The position numbers and the translations under genes are program-made. A stretch of DNA of 64,000 bases from NCBI GenBank assembly GCA_044348005.1, contig JBIKTR010000004.1:66980-130979 (forward strand), written 5' to 3'. Shown here piece after piece: positions 2,906-33,555 of the stretch. Origin of the DNA: Vampirovibrionales bacterium. Its GTDB lineage: Bacteria > Cyanobacteriota > Vampirovibrionia > Vampirovibrionales > JAJTHC01. Positions within the stretch are counted from its first letter, which is position 1. Each line of letters opens with the position of its first letter. Below the pieces are notes generated by a model. It saw nothing but the letters and a program-made list of their open reading frames with translations. It was not told the origin of the DNA and ran no database searches.

Positions 2906-3610
2906 ATGATTTCTTCTCTCTCTCGTTTTGGCACGTCTTTGCCCGCTTATTCAACCAACCCTGCCTTTACTGCCACGACTGAGAACAGTAAAGCACTAGG
3001 GGTCTCTTCACGGGCTAACACCCAACGCCAAGGCTTTTCTATCTTTACATTCACTGGGATGATGATGGAAACTGATTTAAAACCCAATCAAGTTAGTTTT
3101 ACTCCTTCTCAAGTACAAGATAAACTAACGGATATATTTGATAGAAACCTTCCTCGAGATATTGTTCCTTATCTAAAGGAGCGCTTTGAAAGTGTCTTTC
3201 CCAACACGGCCGATCCACTGACTGTTCTCAAAGATTGGCTTGGGGGGAAAGGGCAGGATACACCGCCAATTACAAAAAAAACGCTTCGTGCCTACATTCA
3301 AGATTGTAAGTTTTATGCAAGGATGTTAGAACAAGCAGAAACCCCAGTTCAAACAAGAAAGACAGGAAAAAAACCGAGCTCAGCTAACAAAACAAAGTTA
3401 GATAAATGGGTAGAAAAAATGCGTGATAAAGAATGGAGTGAACTCCCTCTTACTACAACAGAACAGAGACGATGGGCTTCTTACAAGATTTGGCTTAAGC
3501 TAGAGCTACAACATAGAAACACGACAGATCAAAAACAAGCACGCGGGCAGTTATTTACAAACTTGATTCCTAAATTAAAAGCATTACTACCCCCTGTTCC
3601 AGCCAAGTAG
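2906..3610 (+). CDS. Hypothetical protein, member of a paralog family with shared N-terminal ~45 aa (..N.QRQGF motif) and a unique helical C-terminus
   Basis: N-terminus MISSLSRFGTSLPAY..ANTQRQGFS parallels the 21204 and 22179 proteins; AT-rich C-terminal body; ATG start. Confidence 0.6.
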   Translation: MISSLSRFGTSLPAYSTNPAFTATTENSKALGVSSRANTQRQGFSIFTFTGMMMETDLKPNQVSFTPSQVQDKLTDIFDRNLPRDIVPYLKERFESVFPNTADPLTVLKDWLGGKGQDTPPITKKTLRAYIQDCKFYARMLEQAETPVQTRKTGKKPSSANKTKLDKWVEKMRDKEWSELPLTTTEQRRWASYKIWLKLELQHRNTTDQKQARGQLFTNLIPKLKALLPPVPAK

Positions 3611-4096
3611 TTAGAAAAGAGCCCCCTCACCCCAACCCTCTCCCAGAGGGAGAGGGGGTAAAGCCAGCTTGCCGACGGCGCACTAAATGCGAGGCTTCCG
3701 AGACATTTTGCGCACGGCAGGAACGGAGCGAAAGCGAGAGGGGTGGGATAAACTCATTCACGAAGTGAATCTACTTCTTTAGGATGGAGAGGTTAGGAGA
3801 GGAAACCAACGGTTTTCTTTCCTAAGAGAAAAAGTCAGAGACTTTTTCGACGGGAGGGGGATTCTTAAGGGGGGCATACTGGGGGGAGGGAGGACGTAAC
3901 ACGTCCCTCCCCCCGCCGCCCCTTAAGCCGCTTTGGGGGTTTGGGGAGTCTTTGGCGGGACAAAGACCCCCAAGCACCAGCTCAAAAAGGGAACAAGAAA
4001 ACCCCCTCACCCCAACCCTCTCCCAAAGGGAGAGGGAGTAAAACGCCCTTTCGCAGAGTCTTCTATAATACAGAAAACTCCTAGGTTTAAAGGAAG
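3611..4096. repeat. Mosaic cluster of small palindromic repeats (families R1, R4, R5, R6)
   Basis: R1 hairpin ccctctccc-aga-gggagaggg at 3622-3663 and 4002-4044; 3661-3730 is the reverse complement of 12425-12511; 3735-3835 matches 20896-20996; 3884-3997 is near-identical to 25272-25398. Confidence 0.85.
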
Positions 4097-13508: not shown

Positions 13509-15698
13509 ATGGATGCCTTAGCTCTTACCCCCCTTCAACAACGATGCCAAACGTGGTCGCAACTCGCCCAAGCCCGAAATTGGTCCGCGCTTGACGCCCT
13601 TAATCAAGACACGATCAACACCCTTAAACAGGCGTGGCAAGGCCACGGCGTGCTTGCCACCCTACAATGGAACCCCCACCCCGGAGATCTGGCGGGCAAC
13701 GCGCAACTGGTGGAACAGGCCATGCAATTCGCCGAAGCCCTCGGCGCCGATGCCCTTGTGCTTCCAGAACAAACGCTCTTGGGCTACCCCTTGCGAGACA
13801 TGCTCTTGCGCTTTCCCAAGCTGGTGAAAGACAATGAATCGGCGCTACAGGCCTTGGCGTTAAAATCAGGCCACACGCGGGTTTTTGTGGGTTTTGCTGA
13901 GCGTCGTTACGACGCGGATGAAGGCTGGGGCCATTCCTGGGGCAAGCCGTATTACAACAGCGTGGCCATTTTAGGCGGGGGCGTCATTCAAGGCGTGGTG
14001 CGAAAAAGCCTGTTGCCGAATTACCATGAATTTGAAGATTCTCGGGTGTTTGAAGCCAGCGAAACCCCCGGCGTCCAGCGATGGGAACTCCCTCACCCCA
14101 ACCCTCTCCCAGAGGGAGAGGGAGTAAGACAGGGGGCTGTGGCCTTAGAACCCTCTCCCTCTGGGAGAGGGCAGGGTGAGGGTTTCGACCAGCTCGAGGG
14201 GGGGGAAGACCCTCATCCTAACCTTCTCCCAGAGGGAGAAGGAACAAAACCCCCTCACCCCAACCCTCTCCCAGAGGGAGAGGGAGTAAAAGACCCCCTC
14301 GACGCCTACGGCAACATCACCATTCACGGACGCAAGTTCGCCGTGACGGTGTGTGAAGACCTATGGGCGAACGAACCGAATCAACACCCGTGGTACAAGC
14401 AAAACGTCGTCGCCCCGCTCATGCAAGGGCATCCCGATGTGCTGGTGAACCTGTCGTCGTCGCCGTCTCGGGCGGGCAAGGAATACCGCAGGCAGTCGCT
14501 CTTGCGTTCGATTGCCACGCAGTACCGCACCCCCATTCTCTACGTCAACCAAGTCGGCGCGGTGGATGAACTCATCTTCGACGGAGGCTCTCGGTTGGTG
14601 GGGGCGCACGGCGAAATGCTCAGTCGTTCGCGCTTGTTTGAAACGCAGTTTAGCCTGCATCATCTGCAAAACACGGCCTTTCACACCCTTGAAGACTGGG
14701 TGCCTGATGTGGAACTTTCCCAACGAAGCCTGCCCAACGATGTGTTTGACCCCTACGATCCAAGCGATTTGCCGCGCACGTATGCCGCCCTGACCTGCGG
14801 GATTCGCGATTACTTCGACAAATGCGGATTCACGCGCGCGGTGTTGGGCCTTTCTGGCGGACTCGATTCCGCCGTCAATGCCGTGTTAGTGGCGGATGCC
14901 TTGGGGGCTGAAAACGTGCTAGCCTTTAGCTTTCCTTCTGAGCTCACGCCTGCTGACAATAAAGACGACGCCCTACAACTCGCCCAAAATCTTGGCATCG
15001 GCTGGGTGGAAATCCCTATTTCGGCGATGCAATCGGCGTTTTTAGAGGGCATTGACGCCGAACGCCAAACGCTAGAATCGTTGTGGGGCAAGCCGACTAG
15101 CGAAAGTTTTGCGAAAGACAACGTACAAGCCATGAGCCGTGCGACGCTGTTGAGACTCATTGGCAATGATTACCGCGCCCTGCCCATTGCCACCAGTGAC
15201 AAAAGCGAGTTTTACATGGGTTACGCCACCGTGAATGGGGATATGTCTGGGGCGTTGGCGCCGTTGGGCGATGTGTGCAAAACCAAGGTGCGCGCCTTGG
15301 CCCGCTGGATCAATCAACAGCGCGGGGGGGTGATACCGCAAGCCGTGGTGGAACGTCCTTCGGGGGCGGATTTGGCGGTGAATCCGCAAACAGGCCAACT
15401 GTTGACGGCCGAAGAAGCGTTGATGCCCTATGAAGTGATTGACGAGTTGATTTGGCGGATTGAAGCCCACCACCTAGATGCCGCCCGCCTAAGCACCCTG
15501 CTGTGGAGCTGGGAACGCACGCACGGTAGACTTGAACCCACGCAGAAGGCGGCGTGGGTGGGTAAGTTTTTTAGGCGCATGCAGGCCAGTGTGTTTAAGT
15601 GGTGGGTGGCCCCGCCGATGTTGCTGGTGGACGCCAACGGCACGCTGGCAAAATCGGCGTACCACCCCGTGATTACCGCAATGAAGACGCTATACTAG
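13509..15698 (+). CDS. nadE: Glutamine-dependent NAD+ synthetase (nitrilase domain plus NAD synthetase domain) carrying an in-frame 70-aa repeat insertion
   Basis: N-terminal CN-hydrolase region (VCEDLWA); C-terminal NadE (LGLSGGLDSAV P-loop-like SGGxDS); ATG at 13509, the ORF can extend to TTG 13491. Confidence 0.85.
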   Translation: MDALALTPLQQRCQTWSQLAQARNWSALDALNQDTINTLKQAWQGHGVLATLQWNPHPGDLAGNAQLVEQAMQFAEALGADALVLPEQTLLGYPLRDMLLRFPKLVKDNESALQALALKSGHTRVFVGFAERRYDADEGWGHSWGKPYYNSVAILGGGVIQGVVRKSLLPNYHEFEDSRVFEASETPGVQRWELPHPNPLPEGEGVRQGAVALEPSPSGRGQGEGFDQLEGGEDPHPNLLPEGEGTKPPHPNPLPEGEGVKDPLDAYGNITIHGRKFAVTVCEDLWANEPNQHPWYKQNVVAPLMQGHPDVLVNLSSSPSRAGKEYRRQSLLRSIATQYRTPILYVNQVGAVDELIFDGGSRLVGAHGEMLSRSRLFETQFSLHHLQNTAFHTLEDWVPDVELSQRSLPNDVFDPYDPSDLPRTYAALTCGIRDYFDKCGFTRAVLGLSGGLDSAVNAVLVADALGAENVLAFSFPSELTPADNKDDALQLAQNLGIGWVEIPISAMQSAFLEGIDAERQTLESLWGKPTSESFAKDNVQAMSRATLLRLIGNDYRALPIATSDKSEFYMGYATVNGDMSGALAPLGDVCKTKVRALARWINQQRGGVIPQAVVERPSGADLAVNPQTGQLLTAEEALMPYEVIDELIWRIEAHHLDAARLSTLLWSWERTHGRLEPTQKAAWVGKFFRRMQASVFKWWVAPPMLLVDANGTLAKSAYHPVITAMKTLY
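14086..14295 (+). repeat. Four palindromic repeat units inserted in frame within nadE
   Basis: R1 units at 14089-14136 and 14253-14295 and R2-like units at 14148-14196 and 14210-14250 translate as LPHPNPLPEGEGV...PSPSGRGQGEG...PHPNLLPEGEGT..PHPNPLPEGEGV between VQRWE and LDAYGNITIHG. Confidence 0.85.
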
Positions 15699-15717: not shown

Positions 15718-16008
15718 TTAGTTTTTTTGGGGGAAACACGGTCCTGTTCTAATCCAACCACCGTAGTCCTGTTTCAGCTTGTGGACATGATTATTCGCAG
15801 CTGGAATTGTATCAAATGGTTTAGTTTCATTTGAACCATTGTTACTAATGATAATTTTATTATTTTGGAGGCGTGCCTTTACTAATACATCGTTAACAGG
15901 AGTTAAGACTGAAGTGGGTGATGGCTGAACTCGTATTGGTCTTCTTGCAGTAAATAGGATTTCTGGTGTTTTAGTTAGTTGTACACCACATAATTGAATT
16001 AATCCCAT
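15718..16008 (-). CDS. Small hypothetical protein (~96 aa, two Cys), tandem paralog sharing its leader with 16116-16415
   Basis: Start MGLIQL placed 8 nt after the shared AAAGGAA; ORF runs up to 16107 through the homopolymer region; AT-rich. Confidence 0.4.
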   Translation of the reverse strand: MGLIQLCGVQLTKTPEILFTARRPIRVQPSPTSVLTPVNDVLVKARLQNNKIIISNNGSNETKPFDTIPAANNHVHKLKQDYGGWIRTGPCFPQKN

Positions 16009-16038
16009 AAAAATAGTTCCTTTCATTAGGAGAGTTAA

Positions 16039-16067
16039 GGGGGGGGTAAAAAGAGAGAGAGGGGGGG
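16039..16067. repeat. G8-(AG)4-G7 homopolymer/dinucleotide tract in the leader of the 15718 gene
   Basis: gggggggg taaaa agagagag ggggggg read directly. Confidence 0.9.
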
Positions 16068-16115
16068 CGTGTGGGTTGGTCAGGTGAGTGGCGCAAGCAC
16101 CACTCACCGTTGAAG

Positions 16116-16415
16116 CTAGTTAAGTAATTGCTCAAATGGTTGGTTTGTGCAAGAAGTAACTAGGTTATAACCTTGACCTGTTAGTTTATTGGCTTCCGTG
16201 TTCAAGAATCGTGCAGTAGCTTTCGTATCGCCAATGGTCTGAGTAGGAAGCCCATTTGAATAATGCACCCTGTGTGCTCCAGTACTGAACGTCGTTGTTA
16301 TTTCGATTGGGCGCTCACTACCTTTTTTGGCTACAATCTTATTGTACTGACCATTACCTGATTTATTTACACAAGCGCGGTTAAAGGTCTTTGGACCCGT
16401 TATAGTTCCTGCCAT
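16116..16415 (-). CDS. Small hypothetical protein (99 aa, two Cys), tandem paralog
   Basis: ATG 7 nt after AAAGGAA; leader ttaactctcctaatgaaaggaa identical to that of the 15718 gene and preceded by a 15-nt homopolymer. Confidence 0.45.
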   Translation of the reverse strand: MAGTITGPKTFNRACVNKSGNGQYNKIVAKKGSERPIEITTTFSTGAHRVHYSNGLPTQTIGDTKATARFLNTEANKLTGQGYNLVTSCTNQPFEQLLN

Positions 16416-16444
16416 ATTTAAATTCCTTTCATTAGGAGAGTTAA

Positions 16445-16459
16445 GGGGGGGGGGGGGGG
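16445..16459. repeat. 15-nt poly-G (poly-C on the coding strand) tract 29 nt upstream of the 16415 start codon
   Basis: Uninterrupted G15 directly abutting the conserved leader ttaactctcctaatgaaaggaa. Confidence 0.9.
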
Positions 16460-16639: not shown

Positions 16640-17175
16640 ATAGAACCCTCCCTCCTCCTAGCCTCCTCCCTTAGGGAGGAGGAACAAGAACCCCCTCACC
16701 CCAACCCTCTCCCAGAGGGAGAGGGAGTAAATACAGAACCCTCCCTCCACCTAACCTCCTCCCTAAGGGAGGAGGAACAGAACCCTCTCCCTAAGGGAGG
16801 AGGAACAAGAACCCTCTCCCTTAGGGAGCACGCCTCGCCGATGGCGGGCTACGCAGGGTGAGGGAAACGACCAGCTCCAGTGGGGAAGAGTCCCTCCTCC
16901 TAGCCTCCTCCCTTAGGGAGGAGGAACAAGAACCCTCTCCCTTAGGGAGAGGGCAGGGTGAGGGAAACGACCAGCTCCAGTCGGGAAGAGTCCCTCCTCC
17001 TAACCTTCTCCCAAAGGGAGGAGGAATAAGAACCCTCTCCCTTAGGGAGAGGGCAGGGTGAGGGAAACGACCAGCTCCAGTCGGGAAGAGTCCCTCCTCC
17101 TAGCCTCCTCCCTTAGGGAGGAGGAACAGAACCCCCTCACCCCAACCCTCTCCCAGAGGGAGAGGGGGTAAATAC
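16640..17175. repeat. BIME-like tandem mosaic array of hairpin units (families R1, R2, R3)
   Basis: About 11 units: R3 cctcctccc-tta-gggaggagg (LLLASSLREEEQ), R2 ccctctccc-tta-gggagagggcagggtgagggaaacgaccagctccag (three copies), and R1 at 16686-16730 and 17133-17175; irregular unit order with no unique spacers. Confidence 0.85.
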
Positions 17176-17207
17176 AGAACCTCAAAAAAGAAAGAGAGAC
17201 CCTGAAC

Positions 17208-19145
17208 ATGAACGCCCCCTATTCCCCCGATCAAAACCCCTACGTCCACCTTGCGAGCTTTTGCCGAACGGCCGTGTGGCAAGAAATGGATGCCATTAAC
17301 GAAGCGCTGCCCCCTGAAGCCCAGTTTTTGGCCCGCCTGCAAAGCCCCCCCGCCTGGGATGCCCGCCGCCAAGCCATCATTGAAAAACGCACCGCCCTTT
17401 ACGAACGCCTCAAGCAAGACGACGCGCTGGCCGAACTCATGCACCACGACTGCCGAAACAACATCCTGCTGTGGTTTCGCTACTTCGCGTGGACGTACGA
17501 CCCACGCCCCAACCCCTTTCAAAACGGCAATCGAAGCATTGGGCGCGTGCCCTTTGTGCTGTACCCCTTTCAAATGGAAGTCGTCTTGCGCTTGAATGAA
17601 GCCATTGAATTGGGGGAAGATTTACTGGTGGAAAAAAGCCGAGACATGGGCCTTTCTTGGTTAATTAGTTTGGTGTTTCAGTACCGCTGGTTGTTTCATT
17701 CAGGCCAGCAATTTTTGGTGGGCAGTCGTAAATACGGCCATGCAGACACGCGCGGCGATCTTTCCACGCTGATGGAAAAATGCCGTTTCAACCTGCGTGA
17801 ACAGCCCACCAATATGTTGCCTGCGGGCTTTGACTTTCGCAAGCACGATGTCGCCGGTCGTCTGCTGAATCCGCAAAATGGCAATACCATTATTGCTGAA
17901 GCCACTACGGAAAACTTTGCGCGGGGGGGGCGTTATTCCGCCGTATTGCTGGACGAATTTGCGTTTTGGATGTGGGATGATGGCGCCTATGCTGCGGCGG
18001 GTCAGTCCACGCTGTGTCGCTTGTTGGTGTCAACGCCCAACGGTCGAAAAAACCGCTTTGCCCTAGAACGCTTTTCAGGCCTTACCCCCGTGCTAACCGT
18101 GCATTGGAGCCTTCACCCTTTTAAGGACAAGGTGTGGTACACCGCACAGCAACGGCGCCTGTTGAAGCATGAAATCGCGCGAGAGCTGGATATTAGCTAC
18201 GAATACTGCAATCGAGATCGCGTGTTTGAAGAGTTTACCGCTCAACATGTGGCGCACGTGGCGTATAATCCGGATTTGGAGATTTTGCGTTCGTGGGATT
18301 TTGGGTACCATACGCCTGCGGTGTTGGCCTTACAGCGGGACGAATGGGGCCGTGTGGTGGTGTTGAAAGAATGGGTGGGCCAACGCGTGGTGCTCAAAAA
18401 CTTTGCCCAGCAGGTGAAAGACGACTGCGTGGCGATGTTTGGCCCCAATGCGCGCTTTCGCGATGTGTGTGACCCTGCGGGGCATCAGCATAACGACAAA
18501 TCTGAAAACACCAGTATTGAAGTGCTCAATCGCATGGGTATTCACCCTGTGGGCGTGCGATGTGGCGTGGTTGCTAGCATTGACAAGCTTCGCCACCTGA
18601 TGATTGAAGAGCGCGATGTGCCAGTGTCCCTCACCCCAGCCCTCTCCCAAAGGGAGAGGGAGCAAGGCGACCCTCACCCCAACCCTCTCCCAGAGGGAGA
18701 GGGGGTAAATACAGAACCCTCTCCCTTAGGGAGAGGGCTGGGTGAGGGACACGACCAGCTCCTGTGGGAACAAGGCATCCCTCCACCTAGCCTCCTCCCT
18801 AAGGGAGGAGGAACAAATGCCAGTGAAGAAGCCGTCTTCATGCGTGAAGGCCAGCACATGGTCAAATCCCCCGCCTTTTTGGTGGATGCTCAACATTGCC
18901 CCACGCTCATTGACGCCTTGCAAGGGGGGTATCGCTATGTGTCGAATGATTCGGAAGAACTGGCGCAGGAGCATCCCTTTGAAGATGTGGCGGATGCCTT
19001 GCGTTACGCCGTGTGGGAATTGGGCAAACTGCTGATGGATTCGTCTGATTGGGCGCGGGACTTGCGAAAGGAGCGGTATCAGAAGTGGGAAGCGTTGGAA
19101 AAGTTGCGTCGCTACAACCAGCGCCGTGGGCAGTGGTATGCCTAG
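17208..19145 (+). CDS. Phage terminase large subunit (Terminase_6-like) with in-frame repeat insertion
   Basis: KSRDMGLSWL P-loop variant (KSRQ.G.S type), VLLDEFAFW Walker B, C-terminal nuclease region WDFGYHTPAVLAL...DVCDPAG; no portal, capsid or small-subunit genes nearby. Confidence 0.75.
   Translation: MNAPYSPDQNPYVHLASFCRTAVWQEMDAINEALPPEAQFLARLQSPPAWDARRQAIIEKRTALYERLKQDDALAELMHHDCRNNILLWFRYFAWTYDPRPNPFQNGNRSIGRVPFVLYPFQMEVVLRLNEAIELGEDLLVEKSRDMGLSWLISLVFQYRWLFHSGQQFLVGSRKYGHADTRGDLSTLMEKCRFNLREQPTNMLPAGFDFRKHDVAGRLLNPQNGNTIIAEATTENFARGGRYSAVLLDEFAFWMWDDGAYAAAGQSTLCRLLVSTPNGRKNRFALERFSGLTPVLTVHWSLHPFKDKVWYTAQQRRLLKHEIARELDISYEYCNRDRVFEEFTAQHVAHVAYNPDLEILRSWDFGYHTPAVLALQRDEWGRVVVLKEWVGQRVVLKNFAQQVKDDCVAMFGPNARFRDVCDPAGHQHNDKSENTSIEVLNRMGIHPVGVRCGVVASIDKLRHLMIEERDVPVSLTPALSQREREQGDPHPNPLPEGEGVNTEPSPLGRGLGEGHDQLLWEQGIPPPSLLPKGGGTNASEEAVFMREGQHMVKSPAFLVDAQHCPTLIDALQGGYRYVSNDSEELAQEHPFEDVADALRYAVWELGKLLMDSSDWARDLRKERYQKWEALEKLRRYNQRRGQWYA
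18625..18822 (+). repeat. R1-R1-R2-R3 repeat units inserted in frame within the terminase gene
   Basis: Translate as SLTPALSQREREQGDPHPNPLPEGEGVNTEPSPLGRGLGEGHDQLLWEQGIPPPSLLPKGGGTNA, in the same orientation and frame type as the nadE insertion. Confidence 0.85.
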
Positions 19146-19149
19146 TCGG

Positions 19150-19503
19150 TTAAATTTCTTTGAGCCTGTAGAGCTTAAACACTTGAGACACGACTTGCCC
19201 TTGCGTCACCTGCAAACGGCTGGATTCCGCCTTAATGAAATTAACGACCTCCTCATCCACACGGAGCGTCAGGATTTTAGCCCCTGTTTTGGGCTTGCGT
19301 CCTGCTTTTTTCATGGGCTTAAACTTGCCCTGCAAAAAAGCTTCGTAAGAAGAGTCAAGCATCTCGTAAAACATTTCGTAAGCGTCTTCTCGTTTTTCTT
19401 CGACCCCTGCAATGTTAATACACAGGGGAGAGGTGACGATAAACGCGTGGTCTTCTTCGCTCCACTTGCAGGTGACACTGTTTTTGATGGCGTCTAAATC
19501 CAT
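19150..19503 (-). CDS. hicB: HicB-family antitoxin
   Basis: N-terminal HicB tadpole-like region (HAFIVTSPLCINIAGVEEKREDAYEMFYEMLD) plus C-terminal RKPKTGAKILTLRVDEE RHH-like tail; 1-nt overlap with hicA. Confidence 0.7.
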   Translation of the reverse strand: MDLDAIKNSVTCKWSEEDHAFIVTSPLCINIAGVEEKREDAYEMFYEMLDSSYEAFLQGKFKPMKKAGRKPKTGAKILTLRVDEEVVNFIKAESSRLQVTQGQVVSQVFKLYRLKEI

Positions 19504-19727
19504 TAGGCTTTTCCTTCTTGTTTAAGTAACTGTAAAAAAGTTTTGACGTAATGCGGTTTGATGTATCGTTTACGGCCTTTACTGTGAAAAATGGCGAAGT
19601 TCAAAAGGTTCACACCGTTTTCATCGGCGATGTAGTGGTGACTTTTACTTGGAAGAATCGTCCAGCCGGCTTGTTTAACCAGTTTTTCAAATTGACTCAA
19701 ATCCATGGGTTTATAATGAGACGGCAT
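19503..19727 (-). CDS. hicA: HicA-family mRNA interferase toxin
   Basis: LSQFEKLVKQAGWTILPSKSHHYI...HSKGRKRYIKPHYVKTFLQLLKQ matches the HicA/YcfA fold pattern; start uncertain (ATG 19727 with AGAAAGAG SD, 19706 or 19748 possible). Confidence 0.65.
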   Translation of the reverse strand: MPSHYKPMDLSQFEKLVKQAGWTILPSKSHHYIADENGVNLLNFAIFHSKGRKRYIKPHYVKTFLQLLKQEGKA

Positions 19728-19981
19728 GAGATCTCTTTCTTGGCACATTTTATAATTATATATTAGCGTAATACAAAATAAATTACAAGTGCTTTAAGCA
19801 AAAAAACTGGCGTTGGAAAAGTTGCGTCGCTACAACCAGCGCCGTGGGCAGTGGTATGCCTAGTCGGTTGCGGGCGATGCTTCCTGTTTGCTTTCTGTGC
19901 TAGCCCGCCCCCTCGACAAGTGCGTGAAAATAGGGTAGACTAGGGGCAGTTGTTGCGTTGTGTGTGGAAGGAAATGCCCCC

Positions 19982-20725
19982 ATGTTTAACTGGATTGAAT
20001 CCCACGGAAAAACGGCCTTGCTCACGGCGGTGCTGGCTTCTGTCATCATCGGCACCAGTATTTTGGCCGGTGGGCTGGTGAAATTTAAAGCCCTTGAACA
20101 GTCTAAGCTCGCCGTCACAGGGTATGCCGAAACCCTTGTCCAGTCGGACATTGCGGAATGGACACTTACTGTGAGTGCCTTTGATTCCAGCAAAGCGCAG
20201 GCCTACAAAAAACTCAATCACGATTTAGCCACCTTGAAAAACGTGCTCAACACCAACGGCATTCCCCCCAGCGATTTTAACGAAAATACCCTGTATGTCA
20301 CCACTCAGTACAAAAAAAACCTGAATGGTTATGACACCACTGAACTTGCGGGTTACACCCTGAGCAAGGCAGTGGTGGTGCGCACCACCAAGCTCGACGC
20401 CGTTCAATCCACCGCAAAAACGCTTGAACGCTTGGTGGGTAACGGCCTTGGGGTGGATGTCACTGCGCCACAATACCTGTTTAGCAAGCTCGATTCGCTG
20501 AAGCTGAACCTGATTGCCAAAGCCACCAAAAACGCCAAGGATCGCGCCACAACCATGGCCAAAGTCACAGGCAATGAAGTGGGTAGCCTGCTTAGCGCGA
20601 CTAGCGGAGTGTTTCAAATCACCCCGCCCAACAGCACGGATGTGAGCGATTACGGCCAGTACGACACCACCACGCGTCAAAAAAAGGTCACCAGTGTCGT
20701 CAACGTCACCTTTTCCATTCAGTAG
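19982..20725 (+). CDS. SIMPL-domain (DUF541/YggE-like) periplasmic protein
   Basis: N-terminal TM/signal, Thr/Val-rich beta-strand pattern and C-terminal VVNVTFSI typical of SIMPL; ORF extends to 19958. Confidence 0.7.
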   Translation: MFNWIESHGKTALLTAVLASVIIGTSILAGGLVKFKALEQSKLAVTGYAETLVQSDIAEWTLTVSAFDSSKAQAYKKLNHDLATLKNVLNTNGIPPSDFNENTLYVTTQYKKNLNGYDTTELAGYTLSKAVVVRTTKLDAVQSTAKTLERLVGNGLGVDVTAPQYLFSKLDSLKLNLIAKATKNAKDRATTMAKVTGNEVGSLLSATSGVFQITPPNSTDVSDYGQYDTTTRQKKVTSVVNVTFSIQ

Positions 20726-20859: not shown

Positions 20860-21110
20860 GAAAGTGGATTTACTCCCACTCCCTTAGGGAGAGGAAAACA
20901 AGCTTCTCATTCACGAAGTGAATCTTCACCTTTAGGAAGGAGAGGTTGGGAGAGGAAACCAACGGTTTTCTTTCCCAAGAGAAAAAGCTTGCTTTTTCGA
21001 CCATGGTGGGGTGAGGGATTTGGGATGTTCAGTTATAGCTGGTGTTTCCCTCCCTTAGGTCGCACGCCTCGCCTATGGCGTGCTCCCTAAGGGAGGAGGG
21101 AGAGCGAGGG
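20860..21110. repeat. Intergenic repeat cluster (R1 fragment, R4 copy, inverted R1 with GWGEGFGMF extension)
   Basis: 20896-20996 matches 3735-3835 (attcacgaagtgaat palindrome); 21005-21050 is the reverse complement of R1 plus the extension seen at 9560-9600 and 56040-56075. Confidence 0.6.
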
Positions 21111-21111
21111 G

Positions 21112-21140
21112 TTGACAGCCGTGTTTCTTTGCTTTACTAT
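21112..21140 (+). promoter_or_regulatory. Family promoter TTGACA-17-TACTAT with conserved ~65-nt 5' UTR
   Basis: Perfect -35 element, 17-bp spacer, TACTAT; UTR tcaagctaaagcacgatcgcttttatctacgacgccccctcatcctgacgaaag is 95% identical to 22118-22170. Confidence 0.6.
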
Positions 21141-21203
21141 TCAAGCTAAAGCACGATCGCTTTTATCTACGACGCCCCCTCATCCTGACGAAAGGTCTCT
21201 TCT

Positions 21204-21812
21204 ATGCGACTTCAGCTTTCTGCGTTAGCCGCCAGCCCGTTGAATCCCCAACAACAAGCCCCATTGACCCACAACAACAATAGTCTAGTCAAAAATACCC
21301 CGCCCGCTTTGGCCCAACGTCAGGGGTTGACGGAAGTTCTGGTTCAAGAGTTAGAACACCAATATACTCAAATAAGATTCAAATTAAGAAGTGTAGATGT
21401 TACCACTACTTTTGAAAAGTTTGCAAGATTAAGACAATTAGAAACACTCATTAATAAGGCTGAGTGTTTCATCAATTGTTTAAATCATCCTGAGTGGGCG
21501 ACTACAGACTGTGCTGGAAAGGTTAAGATCCTTAAGGATTTTGCAAGAGAATTAGGTCTATCTCGGACAATCAACGTAGCTACTTTTAAGACACATATTA
21601 CACACTCCAATAATAATGACTTGCCAAATAGAGCCTTGCGATCTGAATTGAATAGATTTAAAGAACGATTGAAAGCATATTTAGAAGGTGCGTTTAACAA
21701 TGAAGAAATACAGCGTTATTTAAAGCATGTACGTACAAAGAGTCGCATTCCTAGTGATAATGATCGTGAAATACATCCATGGCGTTATCCCAATCTATTG
21801 ATCCTAGCCTGA
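21204..21812 (+). CDS. Paralog-family protein (MRLQLSALAASPLNPQQQAP...AQRQGL N-terminus, unique AT-rich helical C-terminus)
   Basis: First ~45 codons alignable with the 22179, 2906 and 12939 genes; remainder unrelated. Confidence 0.6.
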   Translation: MRLQLSALAASPLNPQQQAPLTHNNNSLVKNTPPALAQRQGLTEVLVQELEHQYTQIRFKLRSVDVTTTFEKFARLRQLETLINKAECFINCLNHPEWATTDCAGKVKILKDFARELGLSRTINVATFKTHITHSNNNDLPNRALRSELNRFKERLKAYLEGAFNNEEIQRYLKHVRTKSRIPSDNDREIHPWRYPNLLILA

Positions 21813-21850: not shown

Positions 21851-21905
21851 AAGTTAGCGCCTACGCCTCATGCTGTTCATAGAGCCGAAGGGTGTTTTGC
21901 AACAA
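21851..21905 (-). pseudogene. Duplicated fragment of the folD 3' end (encoding ..ATLLQNTLRLYEQHEG)
   Basis: cctcatgctgttcatagagccgaagggtgttttgcaacaaggtcgc is identical to 22780-22826 at the real folD terminus; diverges after ~55 bp. Confidence 0.6.
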
Positions 21906-22085
21906 GGTCGCCACGCCATAGCTTGCCACATATACCGCCTTTACCACAGATTCATCAAACATAAAAACGCCTTCTTTCTTTTTTGTGTGCTGTGGCTATT
22001 ATACCCCCATCCTGAAAAAGAAACCACTGCTGGCTCGCTTCCTGCCCCCGCTCCCTTTGGGAGAGGGTTGGGGTGAGGGGGAAGT

Positions 22086-22115
22086 GTTGACAGGGGGGAG
22101 GCTTTGCGATACTAT
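22086..22115 (+). promoter_or_regulatory. Family promoter TTGACA-17-TACTAT with conserved UTR
   Basis: Aligned with 21112-21140. Confidence 0.6.
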
Positions 22116-22178
22116 TCAAGCTAAAGCACGATCGCTTTTCTCTACGACGCCCCCTCATCCTGACGAAAGCTCTCTTCT

Positions 22179-22775
22179 ATGCGACTTCAACTCTCTTCGT
22201 TGCCTGCCCGCCCGATGAATACCCAACAACAAGCCCCATTTACCCCCACCAATAACAAAAGTAAAGTGAATAATTCTACCTCCGCTTTGAACCAGCGTCA
22301 GGGGTTTACAACGAAACTATTAGAAAAAATGATAGAGTCTTCAAACGCTTCACAAGGATTAATCGAGAAGATTAAAAATAGTCGTCCTGCTGATAAACAC
22401 AAGCAATTAGAAAAGTTAATAAAAACTATTGAGCAGGCTCACTATATTACAACTTCTTTAAGCGATCCGATCTGGTTAGCATTAGATGAATTTTCTAGTC
22501 TTTTAGCTATGAATAATCTTGATTCTCTAAGGCGTTTAGGTACAGCTTCTGGGCTAAAAACAGCACTTAGGTCTTTTAAACAAAGTAGACCTCGTCCAAC
22601 TGACGAAGTGATAACCCAGTTAGCAGAAGGTTTTTATGCTTTACGAAACTCGTTGGAAGCTTTTGTACTAGAACAGCAAAATGAAGCAAAATTAAAAAAA
22701 TATATACTTGGAAAAACAAGGTATGGATTATGGCATCCTCGTTATAAAACAACTAATGCCCCAGTCGACCTTTAG
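22179..22775 (+). CDS. Paralog-family protein (MRLQLSSLPARPMNTQQQAP...NQRQGF N-terminus, unique C-terminus)
   Basis: Shared promoter, UTR and N-terminus; stop lies 2 bp from the convergent folD stop. Confidence 0.6.
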   Translation: MRLQLSSLPARPMNTQQQAPFTPTNNKSKVNNSTSALNQRQGFTTKLLEKMIESSNASQGLIEKIKNSRPADKHKQLEKLIKTIEQAHYITTSLSDPIWLALDEFSSLLAMNNLDSLRRLGTASGLKTALRSFKQSRPRPTDEVITQLAEGFYALRNSLEAFVLEQQNEAKLKKYILGKTRYGLWHPRYKTTNAPVDL

Positions 22776-22777
22776 CC

Positions 22778-23650
22778 CTACCCCTCATGCTGTTCATAGA
22801 GCCGAAGGGTGTTTTGCAACAAGGTCGCAATGGTCATCGGGCCAACGCCTCCGGGTACAGGCGTCACCGCAGATGCCACCCCCCACATCGACGCCGCATC
22901 CGCATCGCCCACCAGCGTGCCGTTGGGCAAGCGGTTAATGCCTACATCCAAAACAACAGCACCTTGCTTGAGTTGCTCGCCCGTAAAGGCCTTGGGCATC
23001 CCCACCGCCAGCACCACAATATCCGCCTGCTTAAGGTAGTCCTCGATGTTTTTCGTGCGACTATGGCAAATCGTCACCGTCGCATGCGCCTGTAAAAGCA
23101 GTTGCGCCATGGGTTTGCCCACAATGTTGGAACGCCCCACAATCACCGCATGCAAACCAGCAATTTCAATCTTATAAAAATCCAGTAAGCTCATCATGCC
23201 CGCAGGGGTGCAAGGCAAGGCATAGGGGGTCAATCCCGCGGCCAAACGCCCCACATTAAAGGGATGAAACCCGTCGACATCTTTGCCAGGTGAAATCGAC
23301 TCCAACACGGCGGATTCATCCAAGTGCTTGGGCAGCGGCAACTGCACCAAAATGCCATCGACCGCCTCATCGTCATTCAGTTGTTGAATCGTGGCCAACA
23401 AAACGCCTTGAGCCACATCATCGGCAAGGGCGATAATTTCAGACTTCATGCCAAGGGCTTCAGCGGTTTGCTTCTTTTTTTTGACATACACGCTAGACGC
23501 GGGATCATGCCCCACTTGAATCACCACCAACTTCGGGAGCCGTTTTCCCGCGGTTTCTAAGGCCAAAACCGCCGTTTTAAGCGTGGCCAAAACGCTTTGG
23601 GCGCAAGCGTTGCCGTCAAGCTTTAGCGTGGTAAGCGGGGGCATCATCAT
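22778..23650 (-). CDS. folD: Bifunctional methylenetetrahydrofolate dehydrogenase/cyclohydrolase
   Basis: 290 aa; Rossmann GRSNIVGKPMAQLL; C-terminal PVPGGVGPMTIATLL. Confidence 0.9.
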   Translation of the reverse strand: MMMPPLTTLKLDGNACAQSVLATLKTAVLALETAGKRLPKLVVIQVGHDPASSVYVKKKKQTAEALGMKSEIIALADDVAQGVLLATIQQLNDDEAVDGILVQLPLPKHLDESAVLESISPGKDVDGFHPFNVGRLAAGLTPYALPCTPAGMMSLLDFYKIEIAGLHAVIVGRSNIVGKPMAQLLLQAHATVTICHSRTKNIEDYLKQADIVVLAVGMPKAFTGEQLKQGAVVLDVGINRLPNGTLVGDADAASMWGVASAVTPVPGGVGPMTIATLLQNTLRLYEQHEG

Positions 23651-23683: not shown

Positions 23684-25078
23684 TTAGCTTAAGCGACACA
23701 CGGTTAAATCAATCGAAGAGGGGGGCGTCGGCGTGTGTACGCCTTCAAGGTGCGGATCCCCCAAAATGCCCGAATCTTCAGGCAAGTGGTCGTGCGTGTC
23801 GTTGGCGTCAAAGGTGTTCATTTTTTCATCGTCAAAAACGCCTTCCCACCGAGCCACCACGGCAGTGGCCACGCAATTTCCGACCAAATTAACAGACGTG
23901 CGTCCCATATCCAAGAAGTGATCAATCCCTAAAATAACGGCCACCCCTTCAATGGGCAGATTGTACAAGGTCAGTGTGCTCGCTAAAATCACCAAACTCG
24001 CGCGAGGCACGGCGGCCACCCCTTTAGACGTCAACATCAGCGTGGCCATAATGCTCAGCTGTTGCCACAAATCCAGCGGAATGTTGGCCATTTGCGCCAC
24101 AAACAAGGTCGCCAACGCCAAATACAGGGTAGAACCGTCTAAATTAAAGCTATAGCCCGTTGGCATGACAAAAGCCACAATATGCGTAGGCACGCCAAAA
24201 CGCTCCATCACGCTCATGGCTTTGGGCAACGCCGATTCACTATTGGCGGTGGAAAACGCAATCAAGAACGGTTCCTTAATGGCGGAAAACATCCGCGTAA
24301 AGGGGACTTTAATAATGGCACAAGCGCTTAACAACACAATGCCTACAAAAATAAACAACGCCAAGTACAGCGAACCCGCCAGCTTGCCATACGTCCACAA
24401 AATGTCCAACCCGTTGGAAGAAACCGCATAGGCAATCGCCGCCAGCACGCCCATCGGCGCAAAACTCATTACATAACCCACGAACTTAAACATAATTTCA
24501 CTCAAGCTTGAAAGCCCGCGCAAAATGGGCTTGCCTTTTTCACCCGCAGCCATAATCGCCAAGGCAAAAAACACGCTAAACACCACCATTTGAAGCACGT
24601 TGCCCGTTGCCATGGCGTCAAAAATGCTGGTGGGCACCATCCCCAAGACGCTGTCCATAAACGTGTGGTTCGCCACGGTGTGGGTATTACTCGTTATGGT
24701 TGCCAAATCGCTGAGGTTTTTGGCGTTCGCCTGAAGCACCACGCCCGCCCCCGGTTTCAACCAATTCGCCACGCCTAAGCCAATGGCGAGTGCAAGCGTT
24801 GTGGCAATTTCAAAGTACAAAATGGTTTTCAGCCCCAGCGATCCCACTTTTTTGGTGTCACCTGCCCCTGCGATGCCTACAATAAGCGAAGAAATCAGCA
24901 AGGGGGCAATCAGCATTTTAATCATGCGTAAGAAGAGATCCGACAAGGGTTTGAGTTTTACGCCTAGTTCAGGGGCATAAATCCCGAGCATGAGGCCCAC
25001 GGCAAGGCCTATCATAATTTGCGTGGTGAGCGACAGGGAAAAGGTGGGTTTTTGAGTGGTTGTAGGGGTTTGGGTCAT
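23684..25078 (-). CDS. Dicarboxylate/amino acid:cation symporter (GltP/DctA family)
   Basis: 464 aa multi-TM protein with conserved DAACS motifs (NMDGTALY-like SFNLDGSTLYLA, AGVP-like VAAVP); acidic C-terminal tail. Confidence 0.85.
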   Translation of the reverse strand: MTQTPTTTQKPTFSLSLTTQIMIGLAVGLMLGIYAPELGVKLKPLSDLFLRMIKMLIAPLLISSLIVGIAGAGDTKKVGSLGLKTILYFEIATTLALAIGLGVANWLKPGAGVVLQANAKNLSDLATITSNTHTVANHTFMDSVLGMVPTSIFDAMATGNVLQMVVFSVFFALAIMAAGEKGKPILRGLSSLSEIMFKFVGYVMSFAPMGVLAAIAYAVSSNGLDILWTYGKLAGSLYLALFIFVGIVLLSACAIIKVPFTRMFSAIKEPFLIAFSTANSESALPKAMSVMERFGVPTHIVAFVMPTGYSFNLDGSTLYLALATLFVAQMANIPLDLWQQLSIMATLMLTSKGVAAVPRASLVILASTLTLYNLPIEGVAVILGIDHFLDMGRTSVNLVGNCVATAVVARWEGVFDDEKMNTFDANDTHDHLPEDSGILGDPHLEGVHTPTPPSSIDLTVCRLS

Positions 25079-31571: not shown

Positions 31572-32735
31572 ATGGCAATGACCAGCTATACAACGCTAGA
31601 GGTGGAAAACTTCAAGGGCATCCGTAAGATGAAACTTGAGGGCTTGGGCATGGTGAATGTGTTTGTGGGGGGCAACAACGTCGGCAAGACCTCCGTTTTG
31701 CAGGCGTTGAATATACATTTTAATAACTCTCAAAATAGACATAATGAGGTTGTGGAAAATTTGAAAGGTCATTTTTACGATGGTGTATTAACCCATTTAA
31801 TTGACGAATTAAATCCTGTTAATAATTTTTATAAGACTCTTACGGATAATGTAAAAATACAGATTGAGACGGATTTAGACTGTAGCTTCATAAGTGCGAG
31901 ATTCGATTCAAGCAGTGCAAGCCCTAGTATTGAAATAGAACCATCAATCGAGTTGTCTTATTCCCAAAAAGGAGTATTATGTAACACTCATAGAACTCCA
32001 TCAATAATCACGATCTTAGTAGATAGTTTGGAAGAAATAAAAACAAGAAAAGTTAGTAATATACTCGAAGTTTATCGTAACTTTAATAAACAATCTCATT
32101 ATATTGGAAGCAAAGCTGATGTTACAAAATTTTCAGAACATCTGTTTCAAACTTATATTGAAAATAAGCAAAAGAACAAGGTTATTACTTTATTGCAAAA
32201 ATCAATTCAACCTAACCTTATTGATATCGTGTATGCACCTGCAAGTAAGCTACTATGTGAGTTGAGTGATTATCCTAAGATGATTCCCTTAGACGTCATG
32301 GGTGACGGTTTTGTTAAGCTGTTGGGTTTGGCTTGTCTAATAGGTATACCTAAAAATATTTTCCTTGTTGACGAACTTGAAAACGGGTTTCATTACAGCG
32401 TCCAAGAAGACATGTGGCGGATGATCCTCACCGCGGCGAAAGAAGACGGTACGCAGTTCTTCTTCACCACCCACAGCTACGAGGTGCTGGAATCGTTGAA
32501 CGCCATGACGCAGAAAATCACCGCTGAATGGGAACAAGAAAAAGCTGAAGGCTATCAAGACGGCAAACTCCTTGTCGGTGAAAACAAAACGCCTATGGAA
32601 CCTGTCTGTGTGTTTGAACTTGAAAAAAGTACAGATGATGTGGTGACATACAAAAGATTTGCAGGAAAATCTTTAAATGGGGCAATAAAGCGTCACATGG
32701 AATTAAGAGGGAAAGGTGCAAATGCTCATGGCTAA
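31572..32735 (+). CDS. AAA15/ABC-type ATPase of a predicted two-gene defence module (AriA/OLD-ATPase-like)
   Basis: Walker A GGNNVGKTS, signature-like MGDGFVKLL, Walker B IFLVDELENGFH, H-loop FFTTHS; AT-rich (~35% GC); 3' end overlaps the next gene by 20 nt. Confidence 0.75.
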   Translation: MAMTSYTTLEVENFKGIRKMKLEGLGMVNVFVGGNNVGKTSVLQALNIHFNNSQNRHNEVVENLKGHFYDGVLTHLIDELNPVNNFYKTLTDNVKIQIETDLDCSFISARFDSSSASPSIEIEPSIELSYSQKGVLCNTHRTPSIITILVDSLEEIKTRKVSNILEVYRNFNKQSHYIGSKADVTKFSEHLFQTYIENKQKNKVITLLQKSIQPNLIDIVYAPASKLLCELSDYPKMIPLDVMGDGFVKLLGLACLIGIPKNIFLVDELENGFHYSVQEDMWRMILTAAKEDGTQFFFTTHSYEVLESLNAMTQKITAEWEQEKAEGYQDGKLLVGENKTPMEPVCVFELEKSTDDVVTYKRFAGKSLNGAIKRHMELRGKGANAHG

Positions 32736-33555
32736 TCCTTCCGTTTTAATCATTGTCGAAGGTGAGACAGATAAAGAATGTATCCGTAAAATTTTCGACT
32801 TCAATAAAGAAGACGCTGAAATCCACGCTTTATCTGACTATATACCGTTTGACGAAAACTTGTGTCAATACGAACATACAGGTGGATTCAACCATTTAAA
32901 AGACACTTTGGAAAAACGATTGCTTAGTGACATACTGCCACTTCTTGATGCGGAATGTCTTAAAGCGATTGTTTTAATTGTAGACGGCGATAATGAACCT
33001 ATCTCTAAGCGTCTTCAAGATATTCAAAAGGCTTTTAGTTCCATAAAAGAATTCCAAGAGACAGGACTTATCCCTGATTTTACAGAAAAAGACTGTAATT
33101 CTTTTAGACCTTTAACGATACAGACAAACTCCAAAAAATATCCTTTAGAATTTGGAATCTATATTTTTCAGGATTCAACATATCAAGATTTGGAATCTTT
33201 TTTATTCGCTACAGCAAAAACAAAGAAGCCTACACATCATAAGATCGTGGCTAAGTTTAGAGAAACGTTAAAAAAAGAACTCGTTGATTCAGAGGGGCAG
33301 TATATTGGTCCGAAATATAAAAACGCAGAAGGTAAACATAACGGTTCTTTAAATAAAGCCATTTACCAGATTTATTTACATACCCAACAAGAGCTAGATG
33401 GCTATAGGCGTAATATAGATAAACGACTCGACAAATTTTTTGATTTTTCATTTACAGGGATTGATCAAACCTCACCCATGTGGAACATAAAGAATTGCTA
33501 TGAAGACTTGAAACGCATCATAAATCAAGACGTTACGGCAAAAGAGAGTCCTTAA
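32716..33555 (+). CDS. Standalone TOPRIM-like protein (DUF4435/RloB-like; AriB-like nuclease partner)
   Basis: LIIVEGETDK (TOPRIM Glu) and LIVDGDNEP (DxD) motifs; translationally coupled to the upstream ATPase; AT-rich. Confidence 0.6.
   Translation: MQMLMANPSVLIIVEGETDKECIRKIFDFNKEDAEIHALSDYIPFDENLCQYEHTGGFNHLKDTLEKRLLSDILPLLDAECLKAIVLIVDGDNEPISKRLQDIQKAFSSIKEFQETGLIPDFTEKDCNSFRPLTIQTNSKKYPLEFGIYIFQDSTYQDLESFLFATAKTKKPTHHKIVAKFRETLKKELVDSEGQYIGPKYKNAEGKHNGSLNKAIYQIYLHTQQELDGYRRNIDKRLDKFFDFSFTGIDQTSPMWNIKNCYEDLKRIINQDVTAKESP

Follow-up and report, generated by a model that had tools for sequence, protein, structure and literature searches.

Some prophages and other integrative elements, such as e14 and phage 21 in icd of Escherichia coli and the islands that target tRNA genes, insert at the 3′ end of a gene and replace that end with one of their own. 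Toxin-antitoxin cassettes are numerous in chromosomal integrons. The cis-mobilizable elements (CIMEs), which are derived from integrative and conjugative elements (ICEs), are flanked by att sites, have no recombination module of their own, and depend on the integrase of a cognate ICE. In homology-facilitated illegitimate recombination, of the de Vries and Wackernagel type, homology on one side serves as the anchor, recipient DNA is usually deleted, and no reusable repeat is left. The minimal mobile elements of Neisseria (Saunders & Snyder 2002, cited in PMC1797815; also PMC3787668) are sets of one to three genes without mobility functions that occupy a syntenic slot, with contents that vary by strain. 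The conserved neighboring genes on both sides act as the recombination arms, and no duplication is left. In this report, we compare these systems with a two-gene cassette in a 64,000-nucleotide stretch of DNA from a Vampirovibrionales bacterium (the window, numbered from its first letter; positions 66,980 to 130,979 of contig JBIKTR010000004.1, assembly GCA_044348005.1), where a putative toxin-antitoxin pair lies between two direct 60-nt copies of the 3′ end of a gene for a terminase large subunit-like (TerL-like) protein. The 60-mers are probably the attL- and attR-like junctions of a unit of about 718 nt that entered when the copy of the terminase tail it carries recombined with the resident gene.

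A duplicated gene end around a two-gene cassette

The locus had been singled out by an earlier reading of the letters alone (the sequence-only reading). The first copy of the 60-mer (direct repeat 1, DR1) was found to occupy positions 19092-19151 and the second (DR2) positions 19810-19869, both on the plus strand. The two copies are identical at 60 of 60 positions, are in direct orientation, and start 718 nt apart. Since the bases outside DR1 and DR2 differ on both sides, the length of the repeat is exactly 60 nt. The sequence-only reading had recognized the repeat itself correctly and had misplaced the first copy by 2 nt and the second by 0-1 nt. The reading had proposed a search of the genome for the 60-mer; a search of the window returned no copies beyond DR1 and DR2 at up to three mismatches, and no such repeat was obtained in 100 dinucleotide-preserving shuffles. 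Both 60-mers and the same layout were recovered in three independent Joint Genome Institute (JGI) assemblies (L001, L002, and L003; related loci are given by number throughout), so the repeat is not an artifact of one assembly, a danger to which the reading had pointed. Diverged versions of the repeat-cassette-repeat architecture are found in other lineages, from other studies.

DR1 is the true 3′ end of the TerL-like open reading frame (ORF; 17208-19145, plus strand, 645 amino acids), as had been claimed, and contains the last 17 codons, the TAG stop codon (19143-19145), and six more nucleotides. The ORF matches terminase large-subunit PHROGs (phrog_2, E = 1.5e-16), and a Pfam search returned no match for the window protein itself. 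DR1 is composed of a 48-nt tail, designated f, and a 12-nt cassette-type tail, GCCTAGTCGGTT (19140-19151, plus strand). Over its first 48 nt, DR1 exactly matches the single tail copy of the cassette-free sister locus L004. The 12-nt tail consists of an extra codon, TAG, and TCGGTT, and its last two bases are part of the stop codon of the antitoxin gene. DR2 is a non-coding second copy of the terminase tail and the candidate right-hand homology arm (attR-like).

The 3′ end of the TerL-like gene, the presumed target of recombination, differs according to whether a cassette adjoins it. A search for homologues of the TerL-like protein returned 167, mostly labeled Vampirovibrionales/Melainabacteria, with PF03237 in some distant relatives. 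The members of this family otherwise end in …Y-stop, and the window copy ends in …WYA-stop. Terminase genes adjacent to the cassette end in …YA-stop or …YG-stop, followed by NNNNTT and the antitoxin stop codon; compared with the …Y-stop found elsewhere, these ends indicate that the new end of the gene comes from the cassette. A 12-nt tail identical or similar to that of the window was found at every terminase/antitoxin junction (L018, L022, L025, and L008), and the cassette-free terminase genes of L004, L021, and L027 end in TAT-TGA without the cassette-type tail.

The insert between the repeats (19152-19809) is 658 nt long, with a GC content of 0.36-0.46 compared with 0.53-0.56 in the flanks, in keeping with the AT-rich segment of about 660 bp reported earlier. 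It encodes only two small ORFs, both on the minus strand: a putative HicA-like toxin of 74 amino acids (19503-19727) and a putative "HicB-like" antitoxin of 117 amino acids (19150-19503), the latter composed of an N-terminal domain and an apparent C-terminal ribbon-helix-helix (RHH) domain. The two ORFs overlap by 1 nt at 19503 in TAATG, where the stop codon of the toxin gene meets the ATG of the antitoxin gene. The order of toxin before antitoxin is kept in L013, L018, L022, and L025, and the pair shows the tight operon coupling of HicAB. An AT-rich promoter-like region follows (19728-19789, minus strand) and marks the right-hand limit of the homology common to all cassette copies; it was not called in a consensus promoter scan. 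The last part of the insert is a linker (19790-19809, strand not applicable) that ends in TTTAAGCAAAAAAACTG and is present only in copies that also have DR2.

The assignment of the 74-residue protein as HicA-like was based on profile matches. PF07927 (HicA_toxin) was the top Pfam family in four of the four orthologues translated (best E = 4.7e-4); the match spans profile positions 3-54 of 58 and, at 16.9 bits against a cutoff of 27, is below the gathering score. The match to phrog_353 ("toxin") is weak (E = 0.0016). A single-sequence AlphaFold2 model (predicted local distance difference test score, pLDDT, of 83.6) has an alpha-beta5-alpha layout, for which a Foldseek search returned no significant neighbor and no HicA structure; a sequence search of the PDB with the toxin also returned no match. 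The 117-residue protein was matched to BrnA/RHH (E = 0.0099), its family profile was matched weakly to CopG (E = 0.02) and MazE7 (E = 0.054), and one relative was matched to RHH_1 (E = 2.8e-5). The AlphaFold2 model of the antitoxin is poor (pLDDT 53.8), with a strand-helix-helix at residues 77-111. The C-terminus thus has a weak resemblance to RHH/CopG domains. The N-terminus was aligned by hhalign, through the antitoxin family profile, to residues 14-62 of E. coli HicB in the expected register, although only at P = 0.02 (probability 2.4%), and the HicB Pfam family was matched neither by the 117-residue protein nor by 39 distant relatives. Only 3 close clusters of antitoxin homologues were found among 5.8e9 proteins, together with 120 distant relatives.

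The toxin gene is cleanly absent from L008-L010 (L008, 10146-10225) and is frameshifted in L014-L016 (AAACCTTGATTATG compared with AAACCTTATTATG; L014, about 1900-1990), and the antitoxin gene is kept in both groups. Toxin-antitoxin loci typically show such decay of the toxin. The order of the genes, their coupling, and the fact that only the first of them has repeatedly been lost fit a type II toxin-antitoxin system. As judged from these comparisons, the pair can be described as a toxin-antitoxin-like, HicA-like/RHH cassette. The name hicAB, under which it had been reported, is plausible and not established: PF07927 speaks for the first half of the name, below threshold, and the second gene has no HicB match in Pfam.

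The TerL-like gene is an orphan, with no other phage gene within 64 kb and with housekeeping genes as neighbors. These neighbors vary by lineage and include nadE, rnpA/yidD, gidB, and others (L004-L011, L021, and L024-L027). The protein is conserved across the Vampirovibrionales/Melainabacteria with its …Y-stop end, and it was absent from IMG/VR when searched there. The gene may be a domesticated terminase. Palindromic units resembling repetitive extragenic palindromic (REP) sequences (CCCTCTCCCTTAGGGAGAGGG and variants) are dense at 18627-18833, 14074-14300, 16649-17181, and elsewhere in the window, and some lie in frame within coding genes. At 18727-18833, the window terminase has 96 nt (32 amino acids) more than its 97% identical relative in L004, and nadE holds a similar in-frame REP-like block that is translated as …PHPNPLPEGEG….

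Hybrid repeats and the states of the site in related loci

Empty sites were found in close relatives, as the sequence-only reading had proposed to look for. In L004-L007 and L024, the terminase gene is 96-97% identical to that of the window at the nucleotide level, SIMPL is downstream, and nadE is upstream (L004). These loci have no cassette; their one tail copy ends in …TGG TAT TGA, and a pentapeptide-repeat gene comes next. L004 is the closest relative of the window. L021 (81% amino acid identity) and L027/L029 are also empty and also have the pentapeptide gene. The empty site with the pentapeptide gene is therefore the ancestral arrangement.

The cassette was found at the same site in L008-L010, L018-L020, L022/L023, and L025. 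Two tail copies accompany it in the window, in L008-L010, in L022, and in L025, where the spacing of the repeats is 718 nt as in the window. The linker (19790-19809) is common to the window, L008, L022, and L025 and is absent from L018 and L013. L026 has a terminase gene with the cassette-type tail and no cassette, and in L008 the second repeat has decayed to about 83% identity to DR1, with indels, and still ends in the ancestral TAT-TGA, which fits a displaced original gene end. The downstream neighbors of the occupied sites differ and include SIMPL, the pentapeptide gene, and a PALP gene. A scan of genome contigs returned four loci, two of them informative (L025 and L026), and two scans of metagenome contigs returned nothing and then one empty-site contig, respectively. 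The earlier claim that a cassette of two genes, rich in AT, entered at the 3′ end of the terminase gene is supported.

The cassette is far more similar between lineages than its neighboring host genes are. Between the window and L022/L025, the identities were determined to be 97-98% for hicB, 91-96% for hicA, and 93-95% for the promoter and linker, compared with 81-82% for the terminase body and 79% for SIMPL. For L008/L018, the corresponding values are 93-94% for hicB and 79-84% for the terminase. The promoter-like region is 89-95% identical across lineages whose terminases are about 80% identical. A cassette that is 93-98% identical in lineages with terminases that are about 80% identical, at the same site and with the same spacing, therefore moves horizontally.

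The junctions of the cassette in the lineage of the empty L021, to which L022 and L025 belong, are informative about how it entered. At eight sites of the 48-nt tail, sequence of the window type (W) can be told from that of the resident L021 (N). The DR1 of L022 reads NNNNN-N-o-N, the seventh site (o) being of neither type, and runs on into the foreign tail GGGTAGTCGGTT and the antitoxin gene. The DR2 of L022 is preceded by a window-type linker, reads WWWWW-NNN, and continues into the resident TGACACGG… and the resident upstream region of the pentapeptide gene. The same reciprocal pattern was found in the repeats of L025. The left part of DR2 is thus foreign at five of five diagnostic sites in L022/L025, and the right part of DR1 is foreign as well. 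A single exchange between tail positions 21 and 40 accounts for both junctions; this interval sits in TACAACCAGCGTCGTGGG, the longest identity block between donor and resident. The reciprocal hybrids of L022/L025 indicate that a cassette-borne terminase tail recombined with the resident tail. Among the options offered by the sequence-only reading, homology-driven capture is the best fit to these hybrids.

No integrase, recombinase, or transposase family was found among the 42 ORFs of at least 180 amino acids in the window, where the sequence-only reading had proposed to look for one, and no integrase was found among the called genes in the flanks fetched for the related loci. No inverted repeat was reported at the ends of the insert. 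The 60-mer, when tested for an attC fold, was no better than shuffled sequences on either strand (z = 0.25 and -0.92). The integron/attC option of the earlier reading was rejected on this result, together with the lack of IntI and the identity of the repeat as ordinary coding sequence.

To the right of DR2, a lineage-specific segment of 38 nt (19870-19907, plus strand) precedes the SIMPL promoter. It contains a weak terminator-like hairpin (19870-19891), which is not above shuffle expectation; the position of the hairpin directly after DR2 would fit the view that DR2 was once a native gene end. Neither the 38 nt nor the sequence after the tail in L026 was matched in any fetched related locus. 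Homology between the window and L004 resumes at 19908 and continues into the SIMPL/DUF541 gene (19958-20725, plus strand; PF04402, E = 1.3e-26), which is the conserved right neighbor of the variable slot and is 97% identical to that of L004. The pentapeptide-repeat gene that is present in the slot of L004 is missing from the window.

L025 (3066-5700) has three tandem pentapeptide-repeat genes between DR2 and SIMPL, compared with one in other lineages, and each unit begins at GGTATTGACACGG, the terminase stop. An integron-like array, in which each pentapeptide gene would carry a decayed terminase tail, was considered and rejected, since the similarity beyond GGTATTGACACGG is not significant (p = 0.08-0.38). 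The L025 contig (JBEISK010000052.1) carries a Vampirovibrionales-type terminase, the cassette, and SIMPL in a metagenome-assembled genome (MAG) labeled Gammaproteobacteria, and it is probably mis-binned.

Proposed entry of the cassette and competing explanations

In the mechanism that we favor, the mobile unit would be composed of the promoter, the HicA-like toxin gene, the RHH antitoxin gene, and, as a terminase tail of its own, a copy of the final 48-60 nt of the TerL-like gene. It could enter as a 718-bp circle by a single reciprocal crossover (Campbell type) or as a linear repeat-cassette-repeat fragment by a double crossover, with DR2 as the right homology arm. By either route, the terminase ORF would stay intact and gain one codon, with the convergent antitoxin gene 4 nt beyond, and the displaced resident tail would become DR2. 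The exchange would depend on homology (RecA-type, after DNA uptake) and would proceed without a dedicated recombinase; host homologous recombination after DNA uptake is favored because no local recombinase and no attC-like fold were found. Subsequent recombination between DR1 and DR2 would remove the cassette and restore an intact terminase gene, a loss against which toxin-antitoxin addiction would be expected to select. The unit may have formed for the first time by a one-sided homologous event with a CTG-microhomology join, although this is speculation. The junction AAAAAACTG followed by the 60-mer and AAATTTC would be diagnostic for the 718-bp circle or for a tandem dimer.

Several observations weigh against this mechanism. 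The DR2 of the window ends in the cassette-type GCCTAGTCGGTT, whereas the DR2 of L022, L025, and L008 ends in the ancestral TGA. A single crossover into a naive site is therefore insufficient for the window, and an extra event is needed. The unit could have integrated where the tail was already present, a state that L026 shows, or a tandem dimer could have formed, after which the second cassette and third tail copy were deleted along with the pentapeptide gene. The cassette is also found in other layouts. In L018-L020 it is next to the terminase gene without the linker and DR2, and the copy in L012-L017 is placed between FtsX and topA and lacks any terminase tail; what the FtsX-topA copy has in common with the window is exactly the stretch between the antitoxin stop (19150) and the promoter (19788). 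From these layouts, the route through the repeat is not the sole way in which the cassette moves. A fixed site-specific core within TACAACCAGCGTCGTGGG would look the same as the homologous exchange proposed here, and a site-specific recombinase supplied in trans would leave identical junctions. No circle, donor genome, or transfer vehicle was observed, the cassette is absent from IMG/VR, and the related loci are all from metagenome contigs or MAGs.

It is unlikely that the cassette is instead a CIME-like mini-element, mobilizable in cis, for which the terminase tail is a true att site, the 60-mers are attL and attR, and the site-specific recombinase is encoded in another part of the genome or by a helper element. 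The repeats at a gene 3′ end, the replaced gene end, the reciprocal hybrids, and the constant 718 nt would all be expected of such an element, and the exchange interval does fall in the most conserved block of the terminase tail. However, that conservation is also explained by coding constraint (Y-N-Q-R residues), no integrase was found in the cassette, the window, or the called genes of the fetched flanks, and the exchange point is placed only within about 19 nt in only two invaded lineages. We regard as improbable the alternative that the repeat arose in place, through a one-sided join resembling homology-facilitated illegitimate recombination or through a 718-nt tandem duplication and deletion of the second cassette, and is a mere by-product with no role in spread. 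The cassette-type tail of the window DR2 is what a partly deleted second unit would leave, the linker ends in CTG, the codon that precedes the tail in most terminases and a possible microhomology for the join, L018 has the cassette beside the terminase without DR2, and the end of another gene, folD, 2 kb away, is duplicated with the same geometry. The DR2 of L022/L025, which is window-type on the left, resident-type on the right, and contiguous with resident downstream DNA, nevertheless requires a pre-existing foreign copy, and an origin in place may describe the first formation of the unit rather than its spread.

Alternatively, a larger prophage or ICE may once have been integrated here and lost its interior except for the toxin-antitoxin pair, in which case the 60-mers would be its remaining att sites. 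The target is a phage-type gene, and such pairs commonly survive the decay of elements. We consider this very unlikely, since the same minimal unit, boundaries, and spacing are found in four lineages, the insert contains no other element genes or pseudogenes, and the antitoxin stop codon and the promoter are the exact limits of the homology between cassettes. Still less credit is given to an integron attC cassette or to a staggered cut of 60 bp that left a transposon- or casposon-like target-site duplication, in spite of the perfect repeats that directly abut the insert in the window; neither a transposase nor IntI, a reported terminal inverted repeat, nor an attC-like fold accompanies them. 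The sequence-only reading was right to set the repeat apart from a transposon target-site duplication, which is ruled out by L022/L025, where the repeats differ from one another and are hybrids with one half foreign, when both copies would be resident-type after target-site duplication. An assembly artifact, with a duplicated or collapsed repeat, is the least credible of all; short-read metagenome assembly carries this general risk, but the structure was identical in the three assemblies and recurs, diverged, in the lineages from other studies.

A more far-reaching proposal, to which we assign a small chance, is that the 718-nt unit is a new kind of recombinase-free element, self-sufficient in cis, that homes to a conserved gene by carrying its tail, with insertion perhaps stimulated in trans by a site-specific activity, for example the TerL-like nuclease cutting near the end of its own gene or an unrecognized recombinase, and that the same process yields the duplicated tail of folD. 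If this were true, it would amount to a general route of cassette capture in these genomes that covers the folD tail as well.

Other duplications in the window and relation to described elements

The folD gene (22778-23650, minus strand) is associated with a repeat of its last 16 codons and stop at 21860-21911 and 22777-22828 (51 of 52 positions identical, 917 nt apart). The two copies bracket an AT-rich ORF of 198 amino acids (22179-22775) that is convergent with folD, the two stops being 2 nt apart. The bracketed ORF and its neighbor (21204-21812) are paralogues with only 33% identity. As the repeat is near-perfect, it must be much younger than the duplication of these genes. No empty site was found for the folD duplication, and a second sample shows the same occupied arrangement. 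The two ORFs belong to an AT-rich family of about 175-235 amino acids, with further members at 2906-3610 in the window and at 3294-3821 and 15116-16631 in L004. The N-termini are conserved (MRLQLS… or MISSLSRFG…, then …QRQGF), the remainders are highly variable, and the members often form tandem pairs. The DNA upstream is conserved over 186 nt at 84% identity (21095-21280 and 22070-22255), and no match to the family was found in Pfam or PHROG.

Two loci from JGI sample 3300042288, L002 and L031, have sequence of the same strain level that is joined otherwise than in the window. In that sample, tpiA and spoIID come after SIMPL in place of the AT-rich ORFs and folD (compare the window around 21101), and the GGDEF and TPR genes found at 4.7-6.8 kb in the window come before SDF-folD (compare upstream of 23684-25078). 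The only breakpoint that was mapped, between L002 and the window near 21101, falls in a REP cluster. These joins are either real rearrangements or repeat-mediated misassemblies. Elsewhere in the window, two tandem small ORFs on the minus strand (15718-16107 and 16116-16415) have in common an exact 30-nt 5′ region, TTCCTTTCATTAGGAGAGTTAAGGGGGGGG (16017-16046 and 16423-16452); L004 has three such tandem small ORFs, with a 41-nt repeat, and no family match was found for the window pair. At 31572-33555, an AAA_15/AAA_21 (AbiEii-like ATPase) gene adjoins a DUF3226 gene, and the two may form a defense pair.

Little is understood of how stand-alone toxin-antitoxin pairs that lack mobility genes pass from one chromosome to another, and the terminase locus offers a concrete route. 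A short copy of a conserved host gene end can let ordinary recombination place the cassette at the same site in every genome with that gene, whatever lies downstream; the host gene is left intact, and the two repeats permit later excision or remobilization. At about 50-60 nt, the arm is of a length comparable to those in recombineering. The states needed for comparison are all available, namely empty, occupied, freshly invaded with hybrid junctions, decayed, and tail-only. The host belongs to an uncultured, predatory, non-photosynthetic sister lineage of the cyanobacteria in which the mechanisms of gene flow are essentially unknown. The locus can be taken as a clean natural illustration of the way in which a toxin-antitoxin pair that lacks a recombinase can spread to one fixed site in the chromosome.

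Compared with e14 and phage 21, the locus has in common a direct repeat of the target 3′ end that flanks the insert, a slightly different gene end supplied by the element, a displaced original end that decays downstream (here, the DR2 of L008), and junctions that are reciprocal hybrids. The features of a Campbell-type insertion are present in the target repeats that flank the insert, the single-copy empty sites (L004-L007, L021, L024, L027, and L029), and the hybrid junctions (L022 and L025); the recombinase of such an insertion was found neither in the element nor in the 64-kb window. The locus differs from these elements in that the insert is only 658 nt long and encodes no integrase, the target is a phage-type protein-coding gene outside a prophage context, and a homology-dependent exchange fits at least as well as a site-specific one. 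The cassette resembles the CIMEs in being att-flanked DNA without its own recombination module and differs in that no cognate integrase was seen. With homology-facilitated illegitimate recombination it has in common the anchoring on one side and a possible CTG microhomology at the joint of the linker and DR2; such recombination could give the first formation of the unit but not the hybrid repeats of L022/L025. As in the integron cassettes, a small toxin-antitoxin cassette is associated with a repeated boundary sequence, whereas here there is no attC structure and no IntI/attI, the cassette has its own promoter region, and the repeat is the coding end of a neighboring gene.

The resemblance to the minimal mobile elements of Neisseria is found in the slot between the terminase gene and SIMPL, which holds hicBA in the window or the pentapeptide gene in L004 with 97% identity in the flanks, and in homologous recombination after DNA uptake, which is likewise the route that we favor for the cassette. 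The cassette described here differs from these elements in that it carries the tail of the left neighbor as its own right arm and leaves a repeat. Because it brings its own right arm, it can enter genomes with different downstream neighbors (SIMPL, pentapeptide, or PALP). No description of a toxin-antitoxin cassette with a duplicated target-gene end was found in the searchable literature. The logic of the junctions and the pattern of the slot are of known kinds, those of the gene-3′-end elements and the minimal mobile elements, and we regard the cassette as a new variant among them.

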